From: Eledone cirrhosa | Lineage: Eukaryota | NCBI GenBank assembly: GCA_964016885.1 | Contig: OZ024751.1 | Span: 40,796,001 to 40,860,000, forward strand | Direction of reading: 5' to 3' | Length of the DNA stretch: 64,000 nt | Part shown: positions 49,171-58,535 of the stretch, piece by piece | How the letters are laid out: each line of letters opens with the position of its first letter | Position numbering within the stretch: position 1 is the first letter of the stretch | Translations under genes and position numbers: made by a program | Notes under the pieces: model-generated | The model's input: only the letters and a program-made list of their open reading frames with translations | The model's database searches: none | What the model was told of the DNA's origin: nothing

Positions 49171-49341
49171 ATATATATATATATATATATATATATATAT
49201 ATATATATATATGCAAAGTTTTATTTAAATTGTTGGGTTACAACGAGTAAATATTTATAACTGATATAAAAGCACTCAATAAGTATTTGGAGTATATTTA
49301 CGATATTAAATAAATGGAAACTATATTTATAAAACCATATT

Positions 49342-49407
49342 TATTTCATTATATATATTTCAGGGATATCATATTAAAAATATGGTATGCCTTCATCAGA
49401 CAAAATA
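49342..49407 (-). ncRNA. Type-I hammerhead ribozyme (mirror copy)
   Basis: Reverse complement of 49590-49655. Confidence 0.8.
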
Positions 49408-49589
49408 CAATATAAACAGTCTTATAAATAGATAGATTTGACATACCTTACAACTTCAACTTCCATTTAAAAAGTTGATTTGGTAGACTACCAAATCAAC
49501 TTTTGGTAGACTACCAAATCAACTTTTTAAATGGAAGTTGAAGTTGTAAGGTATGTCAAATCTATCTATTTATAAGACTGTTTATATTG

Positions 49590-49655
49590 TATTTTGTCTG
49601 ATGAAGGCATACCATATTTTTAATATGATATCCCTGAAATATATATAATGAAATA
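49590..49655 (+). ncRNA. Type-I hammerhead ribozyme, PLE-type with palindromic stem III
   Basis: Stem I UAUUUUGU / AUGAAAUA; CUGAUGA 49598-49604; stem II AGGcAUAcCAUAUU-uuu-AAUAUGaUAUcCCU; GAAA 49636-49639; stem III UAUAUA; predicted cut after AUA at 49647. Confidence 0.82.
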
Positions 49656-50254
49656 AATATGGTTTTATAAATATAGTTTCCATTTATTTAATATCGTATA
49701 TATATATATATATATATATATATATATATATATATATATATATATATATATATATATATATATATATATATATATATATATATATATATATATATATATA
49801 TATACATACATACACACACATATATATATATATATATATAAATACATACATACACATATATATATATATATATATATATACATACATACACATATATATA
49901 TATATATATATATATATATATATATATATATATATATATATATATATATATATATATATATATATATATATATATACATACATACACATATATATATATA
50001 TATGAAAAATATGGGGGAGAAGAATACTGCATGGTTGCACATGGATAACATGTTATAAAATGAGTCCCTCATCAGTGATTTGCCAACGATCATTGGTATT
50101 TCATCGCATTATATATATATATATATATATATATATATATATATATATATATATATATATATATATTTATATATATATATATGTAAAAGTTCTATTTAAA
50201 TTGTTGGGATACAACAAGCAAATATTTTTATAACTGATATAAAGCATTCAGAGA

Positions 50255-51205
50255 GACATACACAGACACAGACATACACAGACATACACAGACATACACA
50301 GACATACACAGACATACACAGACACAGACATACACAGACATACACAGACATACACAGACATACACAGACATACACAGAGACAGACATACACAGACATACA
50401 CAGACATACACAGACATACACAGACATACACACGCAGACACATACAGAGACACAGACACAGACATGCACACGCTGACACATACAGAGACACAAACACAGA
50501 CATACACATGCAGACACATACAGAGACACAAACACAGACATACACACGCTGACACATACAGAGACACAAACACAGACATACACACGCTGACACATACAGA
50601 GACACAAACACAGACATACACATGCAGACACATACAGAGACACAAACACAGACATACACATGCAGACACATACAGAGACACAAACACAGACATACACACG
50701 CTGACACATACAGAGACACAAACACAGACATACACACGCTGACACATACAGAGACACAAACACAGACATACACATGCAGACACATACAGAGACACAAACA
50801 CAGACATACACATGCAGACACATACAGAGACACAAACACAGACATACACACGCTGACACATACAGAGACACAAACACAGACATACACACGCTGACACATA
50901 CAGAGACACAAACACAGACATACACATGCAGACACATACAGAGACACAAACACAGACATACACATGCAGACACATACAGAGACACAAACACAGACATACA
51001 CACGCTGACACATACAGAGACACAAACACAGACATACACACGCTGACACATACAGAGACACAAACACAGACATACACATGCAGACACATACAGAGACACA
51101 AACACAGACATACACACGCTGACACATACAGAGACACAAACACAGACATACACACGCTGACACATACAGAGACACAAACAGATACACACAGCGACACACA
51201 GAGAC
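50255..51205. repeat. 10-bp then 38-bp ACAG/ACAC satellite with a 152-bp higher-order period
   Basis: CATGCAGA and CACGCTGA unit variants alternate in pairs. ORF starts recur at 50622, 50774 and 50926. Confidence 0.92.
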
Positions 51206-51271
51206 ACATTCATTATCTGTGATTTTACAAGCAGAAATATTAGATAAATTATATTGACACAGTGCCATATA

Positions 51272-51495
51272 TCGATTTCTAATATAGGAACAAGGCCAAC
51301 ACATTTTTTGGGTGGTTGGGGGTGATTAATTAAATCAACCCCAGTATTTGACTGGTACGATTTTTAGCGATCCCGAGAGAAAAATGAAAAGCAAATTTGA
51401 CCATGGTAGGATTTGAACTCAGAATGTAAAGAGCCAGAAGAAACACCGCAATGACAGTTTAGCCGTCGCTCTACCGATTCTGTTAATCCACCACA
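51272..51495 (-). mobile_element. SINE A, diverged long variant
   Basis: GGATTTGAACTCAG and the reverse-complement core. Confidence 0.8.
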
Positions 51496-51642
51496 CTTCC
51501 TAATGCCACATACCCTGTGTATGGAAATTTGAATTTTTTTGTATCGATCTCTATAGAAACATTGAAGAGGTTGAATGTAAGTTTATCGAACGTACGTATG
51601 TCAACTTCTTCAAGATTTCTCCACATGCACCTGTCTCAGTAT

Positions 51643-55844: not shown

Positions 55845-56010
55845 CGGCGAATTGTCAGAAACGTTAGAACATTGGATAGAATCTTTTGCAGTATTCGTTC
55901 TGGCTCTCTGAGCTCTGAGTTTAAAACCCACCAAGATCAACTTTGCGTTTCACTCTTTCGAGGTCGGTCGATATAAAAAGGACCAGTCCAGTACTGGTGT
56001 CGATTTTTAC
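55845..56010 (+). mobile_element. Older SINE A copy
   Basis: Degenerate head plus CTTTCGAGGTCG..GATATAAAAAGGACCAG. Confidence 0.65.
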
Positions 56011-57898
56011 TTTGTATCTCTTTGTCACTTCCTCTCTACCACACACATTCTTCTTCTTTTTTAGGCGAAACTGGCTCCCACATCACGACGAGGAGTGCTT
56101 TATCCTGCTTACACCATTTGTTATTAATTGGAGTATTGCAATTGGAGTATTGCAAACACAATCATAACTACCTATTAATCAAACATTTAACAACACTACG
56201 TAAATACTTGTATAGAATTGAAAATGTAAAGTGAAAACATTGGTATAGTAGGTGTGGGTAGGTAATGTAGGGGGAGGTAATTATAATGTAATACTATAGT
56301 AGTAACATCTTCTTGTTGACCATTCGTGACAGTTATATTAGTGTTATCATAGTTTAACAACGAGAAGATGTATTCATGACTAAAATTTCTGATACTGTAT
56401 AAATAACATTATAGGTATGAATTTATAGTTCTTAATTATAACACAATAGTGACGCTATATTAAAGATTTCTTTTGATATAGCTATGAAATCTGCAGTTTA
56501 ACCTTTAAACCTTTTATGTTTTCGAAACGTTAGGATAAAAAGGAAAAACAAAAAGAAAAGAAAGAAAGAAAATGTTTTCTCAGTGTTATAATTCTAACGT
56601 CCTTTGTAAACACGACTTGGTATGTTTACAAGAATCATTGAACACAATATTTCGCCTGAAATGGTGTGCTTACTTTTGAATAACCTCCAACTATTATCGA
56701 TGAGTAATAATGAAAGACAACTTACCTAAATCAATATTTGCTTGATATGAGAAAAATCTATTGATGGAAATCAAACTCATGCGGTCTGATGAAATAATGA
56801 TAGATATGGCAGCATTTTAAGATGAATTGGAAACTGTTATAGAAGCCAAATGAACCTCACCTCTATTGTTCACATCACTTGTGATGATTAGCTAGCTGTA
56901 TTTGAAAAGATGAAAGAATGAATGGCACGAACGGTCCACAATGAGATTTATTGCGAGATAGCTAAATATTTTACCACAACTGACAGTTAAACGTAATTAA
57001 CATGAAAAATAAAACTGAAAAGAATAATAAATAAAGAAAACAATAATGAAAATAAAATAGAATCAAATAAAATAAAATAAGCGGGCGAAAAATCTGTAAA
57101 CATTTTAATGAGCTGTCTAAATGTTAATTGAAGTTTTATCTGTTTAAAGTTTTGTATCGAATGGTATTTGAAAGCCATAAAATGGTGATTGATCCCAGTG
57201 AGGCGAAGCTGATTCCTGGTTACTTAGCCAACGAATTTTGGAAAGGGATAAATCTCCTATCATCACAATTCTTAATGTAGTTTGTTTGTTTCACACTAGA
57301 CCTTGATTAAAAGACCGGTGAGAATGTCTTTTATAGACAAGCTAACATTTTACTGATGTCTTATTGAAGATGAAAGTGTTCAGTGTTAAAAAAACAACAA
57401 CAACAAACAACTAGCAAGGAACTGACAGAATCATTAGAGCGTCGAATAGAACGTCTTGTGACGTTCGTTTCAACTCTCTGCTCCTCTGAGTTCAAATTTT
57501 ACCATGCCTAACTTTGCCTTGCCATTTACCCATTAGAGGGTGTGTGTGCTAATTTATCATATCTCGGAATAAGCTACATGAAAAGGGTCAAACATAACAC
57601 TACATGAAATGGGTCAAACATAGCACTTTTACATGGAAGCGGTACCATTGCTATCACCACAACTATATCTGGGCACGGCTAGACAATAAAGAAAGAAAGA
57701 GTATATATATATATATATATATATATATATATATATATATATATATATATATATATATATATATATATATATGTAGGAGGTGAGTTTTGTTGTAGTACAA
57801 TAAAGCAATGCAGATATCGGATAAGAAGCACTCTACAGTTTGTAGGACTGGAGTATACATAATATAGAAGATCAAAAGATGGTTAAAGGAGTTCCATG

Positions 57899-57966
57899 TA
57901 TTTTATTATGCGCATTTCAAAAACAAACATCATGCAATAATATTTGTGTTTTCATCAGATAAAACA
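57899..57966 (-). ncRNA. Type-I hammerhead ribozyme (mirror copy)
   Basis: Reverse complement of 58094-58161. Confidence 0.83.
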
Positions 57967-58093
57967 GGAGGACATGATATGAAGGCTAAAAAACACGTGT
58001 GGATAGTTCAGTTTTAAATCAACATATAATTGATATGTTGATTTAAAACTGAACTATCCACACGTGTTTTTTAGCCTTCATATCATGTCCTCC

Positions 58094-58161
58094 TGTTTTA
58101 TCTGATGAAAACACAAATATTATTGCATGATGTTTGTTTTTGAAATGCGCATAATAAAATA
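58094..58161 (+). ncRNA. Type-I hammerhead ribozyme, PLE-type with palindromic stem III
   Basis: Stem I UGUUUUAU / AUAAAAUA; CUGAUGA 58102-58108; 15-position stem II AAAcACAAAUAUUAU-ugc-AUGAUGUUUGUuUUU; GAAA 58142-58145; stem III UGCGCA; predicted cut after AUA at 58153. Confidence 0.87.
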
Positions 58162-58237
58162 CATGGAACTCCTTTAACCATCTTTTGATCTTATATATTA
58201 TATATATATATATATATATATATATATATATATATAT

Positions 58238-58327
58238 ACGGGGGAGTGTTGTACTCTCAGTCGCTTCACGCCATGAAATCGGGATAAGCACCGGCCAAAT
58301 GACCCTTCTGGCTTAAGACAGACTTTA
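58238..58327 (+). mobile_element. 3' end of a V-SINE-like element
   Basis: GTACTCTCAGTCGCTTCACGCCATGAAATCGGGATAAGCACCGG, homologous to the reverse complement of 59930-60010. Confidence 0.65.
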
Positions 58328-58340
58328 GATATATATATAT

Positions 58341-58535
58341 ATAGGAAAAAGCATGACCCCGACGGCAGAGCTCAAGCCGTTTCGACGGCTATTTCTAGTG
58401 CAGAAATAGCCGTCGAAACGGCTTGGGCTCTGCCGTCGGGGTCATACTTTTTCCTATTACCCACTCTACTACCCTAAGTATTGAGTACTCTGGTGCGTTA
58501 TGGTCCACCTGGTTCCTTACCACATTTCCTTCGTT
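58341..58535 (+). mobile_element. PLE-like 'GACCCCGACGGC' family insert with 56-bp inverted arms and ~78-nt tail
   Basis: Arms 58341-58396 / 58402-58457 with two mismatches. TA flanks both sides. Confidence 0.8.

Follow-up and report, generated by a model that had tools for sequence, protein, structure and literature searches.

Palindromic insertions and their parent elements

The 64,000-nucleotide (nt) stretch analysed here, hereafter the window (Eledone cirrhosa contig OZ024751.1, positions 40,796,001 to 40,860,000, assembly GCA_964016885.1), is TA-rich animal DNA from an assembly of 3.0 Gb and carries six palindromic insertions linked to Penelope-like elements. A first-pass annotation had proposed that six loci from five unrelated sequence families share one layout, and this was borne out: 6/6 run from (TA)n through a long arm with an unpaired tail into an inverted short arm and back to (TA)n, and all belong to high-copy families. 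In locus order, the tails measure 174, 56, 81, 77, 82 and 77 nt. We named the families A, B, C, D (two window loci) and E, and counted positions inward from the tail end.

The Hydra-type family A insertion (18185..18410) has a tail arm of 197 nt, of which 174 nt form the tail, and an inverted arm of 27 nt; its open reading frame (ORF)-bearing parent lies in locus L155. The Neptune-type family B insertion (23531..23766) carries a 56-nt tail on its right and ends before the hammerhead-like motif of its parent, L158. The Hydra-type family C insertion (49212..49704; parents L160, L161 and L151) joins a 275-nt tail arm to a 195-nt inverted arm through a 23-nt templated insert, with both arms finishing at the family stop described below (275/276). 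Type I hammerheads with a palindromic loop III occupy its tail arm (49342..49407, minus strand) and its inverted arm (49590..49655, plus strand), and a hairpin of the form RCTC...GAGY lies directly 3' of the internal start site (49272..49293, minus strand). The first family D insertion, also Hydra-type (55085..55287), consists of a 136-nt tail arm, a 7-nt insert and a 60-nt inverted arm, each arm bearing the 3' half of a U3-A8 hammerhead, with the hairpin directly 3' of its internal start site at 55131..55156 (minus strand). The Hydra-type family E insertion (57772..58206; parent L153) has a 256-nt tail arm and a 177-nt inverted arm and finishes at its family stop (257/260); it carries type I hammerheads with a palindromic loop III in the tail arm (57899..57966, minus strand) and in the inverted arm (58094..58161, plus strand), and a hairpin directly 3' of the internal start site (57828..57854, minus strand). 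The second family D insertion (58341..58534) has a left inverted arm of 56 nt, a right tail arm of 139 nt and the corresponding hairpin at 58463..58488 (plus strand).

Following long copies showed that the ends of A, B, C, D and E all continue into the reverse transcriptase (RT) and GIY-YIG frames of autonomous elements. The Penelope-like origin proposed by the first-pass annotation is therefore hardly in doubt, while its notion of an ORF-less element class fails, since all five families end autonomous ORF-bearing elements. Motifs place four families as apparently Hydra-type (A, C, D and E) and B as apparently Neptune-type. The family B parent (L158:629-4306, minus strand) contains an intact 1226-codon frame with RT motifs, a Cx4Cx2C linker and GIY-YIG, and shows the Neptune features of a Cx2-5CxxC linker and CCHH in the endonuclease. 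Its N-terminal part also holds long Asn/His-rich inserts, resembling the Asn-rich inserts described in Adineta. RWK/RWR and DKT occur in the N-terminal part of A, C and D; the copy of E examined lacks this region. C, D and E have a CxCx5C linker, no CCHH, and CxxC and CxH around the conserved E and N, and in family A's own copy W replaces the first C of this linker. The protein look-alikes of B and C (Atlas) were RT/GIY-YIG proteins (0.96-0.98); Pfam gave sub-threshold GIY-YIG only, on B and C fragments, and nothing relevant on longer ORF pieces.

The copies also show structural hallmarks of endonuclease-positive (EN+) Penelope-like elements, with an inverted 5'-truncated copy and a one-end tail. 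Partial tandems with pseudo-long terminal repeats (pseudo-LTRs, pLTRs) were present in L155 (A), L158 (B), L160 (C) and L369 with L349 (D); none was seen for E, whose longest copy is 5'-truncated. TA-rich sequence adjoined 520 of 529 mapped ends, and an empty-site search returned matches in 5/158 cases, all low-complexity. As described in the available portions of PMC8557442, the Hydra clade likewise combines a C-terminal GIY-YIG, RWK/RWR, DKT, a CxCx5C linker, (TA)n targets and hammerheads, and the inverted 5'-truncated copy and one-end tail are given there as general features. The tails here are 77-174 nt, compared with 30-40 nt in that paper; B, with its 56-nt tail, is assigned to the Neptune clade by motifs rather than by a tree. 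Two other classes were considered and rejected. A non-LTR retrozyme would consist of 170-400 nt units arrayed head to tail, every unit bearing a canonical hammerhead, whereas the inserts are single inverted pairs with variable centres; a miniature inverted-repeat transposable element (MITE) or other terminal inverted repeat (TIR) DNA transposon does not fit the asymmetric ends, the variable centres or lengths of 106-5222 nt.

Full hammerheads in two families and a half hammerhead in a third had been noted from the sequence, and we found the same: complete in both arms of C and E, and a 3' half in the window loci of D, whose long copies carry a full U3-A8 variant with a core that is mostly UUGANAA with a free N7. 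The family B parent has a hammerhead-like motif, recognized by eye, with an unpaired base before stem II. Rfam reported no hammerhead in the window, only sub-threshold microRNA hairpins, and single-strand folding of the hammerheads gave z-scores that were not significant and no better than shuffles. Complete hammerheads were found in 12/90 TA-flanked palindromes, compared with 10/450 random and 24/637 other TA-to-TA segments. They are thus enriched among TA-flanked palindromes, as anticipated, but present in a minority of them. The cut is predicted at C 138/139, D 97/98 and E 133/134, and three insertion events begin exactly there, namely L340 and L354 (D) and one E palindrome. Minimal Penelope-like hammerheads with the U3-A8 core variant and palindromic loop III were described in PMC4209133, as were opposite-strand pairs, there 100-700 bp apart. 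Naiads are without canonical hammerheads.

Start sites, common stop and coupled arms

In each family, the ends cluster at two points, namely position 1 and a single internal site (A 175, B 57, C 82, D 78 and E 83). These two sites are 56-174 nt apart and both lie 45-270 nt upstream of the start codon, with the tail site 45-94 nt before it at intact junctions. The tail end is thus an internal site, and the earlier proposal of priming at the 3' tail of the RNA is not supported. Both sites offer a match of only 2-6 nt to (TA)n, and longer TA words nearby, such as an 8-nt TA run in the C hammerhead loop, are unused, which argues against microhomology choosing the internal site. The related claim that the short arm always stops where the long arm has a TA-like word held in that the word at this site is fixed and TA-like, but the word's match to (TA)n is short.

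The two sites are used as a pair. The random sample comprised 20 blocks, each of 50 kb and placed at a round coordinate, from 13 contigs. With 85% identity and 25-nt arms required, all 31 verified inverted insertions (31/31) combined one tail and one internal end (P = 5e-10 against free choice), a count that excludes four facing pairs with unexplained centres (three tail plus internal, one internal plus internal in B) and 37 unpaired ends. Other loci gave 124 tail-plus-internal, five tail-plus-tail and no internal-plus-internal combinations. In a forward test, the far end predicted from its partner was correct in 6/6 readable loci (10 fetched). The RCTC...GAGY hairpin follows the internal site in 34/75 tails (about half of them D; at least seven families), compared with 0.7% in shuffles. 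In A, C, D and E a second copy of it stands after the tail site, outside every tail. If this second copy is required, its position places priming at the leader-ORF junction and not at the RNA 3' end.

A related behavior was observed in vitro for Poseidon of Anolis (PMC11167929), where both strands were cut and extended from two internal start sites bounding the tail, and where a dimer was predicted and the target is AT-rich. The anole sites lie inside the ORF and do not match the target, whereas those described here precede the start codon with a 2-6 nt TA match. In the available portions of that paper, the two sites are not tied to the two ends of one insertion, and inverted copies, jumps, the cap and circles are not discussed.

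The two arms very probably represent two separately primed complementary DNAs (cDNAs), that is, twin priming. Among 53 palindromes unselected for length, the tail-less arm extended further 5' in 33, less far in 11 and equally far in nine, and there are tail arms that never reach the internal site; the short arm was therefore not copied from the long one. Tail-less arms hold most of the ORF in L161 and L167. The arms share subfamily variants, which indicates that they come from one source. At the 53 junctions, we counted 28 microhomologies, 22 inserts and three blunt joints. Of the junction inserts measuring at least 8 nt, 16/22 were copied from the arms or the parent nearby. Such templated inserts resemble polymerase-theta joining. 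The first-pass idea of two separately primed cDNAs joined at the centre is supported. Editing of A to I was considered and rejected, as the tail-arm A>G at D position 109 came from the query and occurred in 0/41 unselected tail arms.

Arms also share a stop within each family for which it was mapped (C, D and E). Exact-word arm-end histograms are distorted by subfamily variants, and only the junction-verified count and hand-checked cases were used. With tail-side queries only, E tail arms ended at 255-258 in 11/30 and their partners at 255-260 in 10/21, and D arms ended at 132-145 in 28/30. Unpaired E arms in the random sample ended at 257 in 3/4, and 12/15 of the D raw-read joints listed (there were 16 further joints) had one side at tail-first 132-139. 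The stops at C 276, D 137-138 and E 257 coincide with initiator-like words. In the junction-verified count, the first inserted base was C after 11/19 arms ending exactly at the stop, compared with 5/48 elsewhere. In long interspersed nuclear elements (LINEs), an extra C is the mark of cap copying. An extra C is expected when a cap is copied, and the stop, known here from DNA scars, is probably the capped 5' end of the leader RNA. The transcription start of D. virilis Penelope lies within the pLTR and upstream of an intron whose end is at the hammerhead (PMC2377424; PMC4209133).

Synthesis sometimes continued beyond this stop. In five events among the 30 D loci that were retrieved with the start of the ORF, synthesis departs from the leader at 136-138 and picks up again at ORF positions 201-842 (L331 with L332, probably one duplicated event, and L337, L342, L356 and L358). 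In L356 the resumption is on an 11-nt poly(A) and is accompanied by an extra G, and L350 jumps from 171 instead of 136-138. The independent D insertions L337 and L358 share a resumption point at ORF position 274-275, which in one of them comes with a short oligo(A); this position is possibly a premature polyadenylation site in the D transcript. In the second pass of 30 D copies, ends were spread over 0-472, with 16 beyond 190 and just three at 135-142; the template of long copies therefore lacks an end at the stop.

The two arms of a palindrome behave alike. Among 127 C, D and E palindromes, both arms finished at the stop in 69, both passed beyond it in 19, and two were mixed; the other 37 had a shorter arm. 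Partners ended at the stop for 5/7 jump-type arms and for 0/8 seamless arms.

Proposed mechanism and rival explanations

The palindromes thus document fixed paired sites, a shared source, a common stop, jumps and coupling of the arms. We interpret them, with a probability of about 0.7, as short insertions of autonomous Penelope-like elements made by twin priming on one RNA and kept short by run-off at the cap. Under this interpretation, the element's enzyme would cut both strands of a TA tract and prime both DNA ends on a single RNA, presumably as a dimeric protein with one hairpin per subunit, the role of the hairpin being putative. The enzyme at the tail site would trail the other by strand displacement, at times stalling early. 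On a capped, uncut leader, both cDNAs would end at the transcription start after 60-280 nt, often with a C added opposite the cap, and host end joining would link them head to head. The scars show that the enzyme at times resumes from the stop on another part of the element RNA. On unit-length RNA cut by the hammerhead, it may cross the junction through a ligated circle or an exact end-to-end jump, which would yield long arms and more-than-unit copies with pseudo-LTRs. The short palindromes, or stubs, would then be by-products of the normal cycle and not a separate element. The whole cycle, in which a dimer on the two leader hairpins would always prime the two ends of a cut TA tract from the two adjacent sites, strong-stop DNA would form at the cap and the hammerhead would be required to make unit-length or circular RNA with a junction that the enzyme can cross, is more tentative, and we place it slightly short of an even bet.

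LINE-1 twin priming and R2 end-to-end template jumping share with this proposal internal priming by the second DNA end, an extra base opposite a cap, and jumps from a 5' end to the 3' end of another RNA. The LINE-1 internal site varies, however, and there is no overlap between its two pieces, whereas here the site is fixed and obligatory and the arms overlap. In the Penelope elements of Adineta vaga (PMC3846280), as in our families, there is an inverted pLTR, one end bears a tail, the inverted junction has palindromes and the pLTR holds an initiator-like TCACT. The junction is explained there by self-priming with an antisense template, and our data favor two sense-templated cDNAs. PMC4209133 proposed that cut and circularized RNA serves as template in producing more-than-unit copies, without in vivo evidence there; here, two D arms and one E palindrome start exactly where cleavage is predicted, and second-round synthesis is unaffected by the stop. 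The first-pass annotation had treated the loci as a distinct system. Judging from the available portions of PMC8557442, PMC3846280 and PMC4209133, however, the Hydra and Neptune clades, inverted tail-less copies, tails, TA targeting and opposite-strand hammerhead pairs are already known, as are two internal start sites with two-strand extension in vitro (PMC11167929) and the proposal of circles (PMC4209133). Those portions of PMC8557442 attribute the tail to endonuclease resolution and mention no one-of-each rule, repeated hairpin, leader stop or jumps, and the origin of tails, inverted copies and pseudo-LTRs and the role of the hammerhead are called open there and in PMC11167929. In a literature search with subscription papers and supplements outside its scope, we did not find it stated that each insertion takes one start site of each kind, that the hairpin is repeated, that the stop is cap-like or that jumps occur; these families or related ideas may be contained in such supplements, among them Fig. 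S2 of PMC11167929 and the PMC8557442 family files.

Several observations weigh against our interpretation. Five tail-plus-tail cases exist, one D-like palindrome has no tail, and the random megabase left 37 ends without a partner and four facing pairs with unexplained centres. The repeated motif of family B differs, family A yielded no hammerhead, and the stops of A and B are unmapped. The extra C is weak with a noisier control (E, p = 0.05; C, none), ends at the cut site are few (two D events, one E event and no exact case in C), and later deletions in palindrome centres could add asymmetry. The anole element did not require hammerhead cutting in vitro, and none of the reads terminated at the cut (PMC11167929). 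The start site, cap, cleavage and circles are read from DNA scars.

Two alternatives concern the origin of the arms and of the stop. In a fold-back scheme, the tail-site cDNA would snap back and copy itself, an endonuclease would trim the copy at the internal site, and later deletions would create the asymmetry; self-priming of this kind was proposed in PMC3846280 and endonuclease resolution in PMC8557442. Many centres are near-symmetric with correlated arm ends, and the subfamily variants common to both arms and the 16/22 templated inserts would follow naturally. We nevertheless consider the scheme unlikely: the tail-less arm is the longer one in 33/44 unequal cases and can carry most of the ORF, some arm pairs have no overlap at all, and tail-less arms show an extra base of their own at the stop and jump independently to other RNA positions. 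Alternatively, twin priming may be right and the stop a pause at an RNA structure or bound protein, or a processing site, with long copies arising from read-through or tandem transcripts and no hammerhead cutting. Evidence on the stop here comes from DNA, not RNA, the D stop adjoins an AG resembling a splice acceptor, and the main in vitro template was uncut RNA (PMC11167929), all of which favor this alternative. It is nonetheless improbable: against it stand the extra C at the stop, the jumps from the stop to other ends, including onto poly(A), and the joint switch in behavior of both arms; second-round synthesis stops there in just 3/30, and the tail-site hairpin occurs only at the leader-ORF junction.

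Two further alternatives were weighed. The stubs might be a self-propagating non-autonomous family, similar to short interspersed nuclear elements (SINEs), MITEs or retrozymes, transcribed from their own centres and moved in trans. D stubs do far outnumber long copies (of the unselected palindromes, 29/30 have ended by 165), many loci contain the same D junction, although they were selected with it as the query, and non-autonomous Penelope-like derivatives exist (PMC8557442; bioRxiv 10.64898/2026.07.22.740005). Yet centres vary from copy to copy, several combinations of D variants are common to short and long copies, and the stubs are not head-to-tail arrays and lack the hairpin after the tail site, which makes such a family very unlikely. 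Almost no weight can be given to an assembly artefact or generic break-repair fold-back at TA repeats. TA tracts are fragile, the window holds TA-centred fold-backs (3214-3313 and 49061-49168), and a few TA-flanked palindromes are TIR transposons; against this stand family-specific ends fixed to the base, diverged arms and the links to Penelope-like ORFs. Moreover, raw Illumina reads from three other samples, mapped to the D arm, contained both the opposite-strand joints and the short arm's junction with TA, with about 3000 reads per sample carrying (AT)n at the D internal site. The D structure is therefore not an assembly artefact.

These loci amount to many independent events that constrain Penelope-like mobility, through one site per end, the hairpin, the cap-like stop, the jumps and the coupled arms. 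If the whole cycle holds, the tail, the inverted copy and the pseudo-LTR would all result from one mechanism, and the hammerhead would act as a switch between dead-end palindromes and live copies. The resulting model of Penelope-like movement is testable at the bench.

Abundance and neighbouring repeats

First-look genome candidates numbered 1482 for A, 946 for C, 1634 for D and 481 for E; the search for B was blank even for B itself, yet B copies lie in many fetched loci. We excluded block 15 of the random sample, a satellite, from the de novo counts, leaving 0.95 Mb, which contained 107 TA-flanked palindromic segments, 69 of them with a 30-260 nt tail, in 57 clusters. Another 34 had tails shorter than 30 nt: many are inner parts of tailed palindromes cut at an internal TA run, and a few resemble TIR transposons. 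Because this short-tailed set is mixed, 69 is an undercount and the 107 are not all Penelope-like. The density was 31 stubs per Mb for the five families and 69 tailed palindromes per 0.95 Mb overall, in keeping with the abundance first suggested by the window. If the sample is typical, the genome would hold roughly 1e5 copies of the five families and 2e5 tailed palindromes in all. The stubs thus make up a large part of the genome, one that has probably been annotated in error as MITEs or microRNA hairpins; if transcribed, they would give rise to double-stranded RNA.

Among the longest palindromes are three inverted insertions, L161, L162 and L167, which span 4-5 kb. Their arms measure 0.8-1.8 kb and are 86-94% identical, and these loci are possibly fragile sites. 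L106 contains one D palindrome plus its TA flanks in four tandem copies, a later local amplification of a stub. The random block at C7:30.0-30.05 Mb (L246-L250) is largely a satellite with a unit of about 270 nt and a higher-order period.

The window holds further related pieces. Part of another TA-flanked family lies at 54936-55045; its hammerhead-like core is on the minus strand and its stem III is longer, and this family also adjoins D in L005 and L021. Lone arms include a C-type tail fragment (50183-50250), a short piece like the C internal end (58585-58612) and a partnerless D internal arm (63490-63550). The fold-backs at 3214-3313 and 48990-49168, the latter tandemly repeated, have the TA tract itself as their centre and arms of 25-45 nt, and differ structurally from the tailed palindromes. 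A high-copy SINE-like repeat occurs at 59298-59481, 34306-34488, 26583-26770 and about 20 more places, and the same repeat lies in the 3' region of many family A copies, within an (AAT)n run. Young minisatellites lie at 7792-9103 (period 86 nt), 51742-52776 (99 nt), 45618-46639 (31 nt) and 17379-17900 (61 nt).

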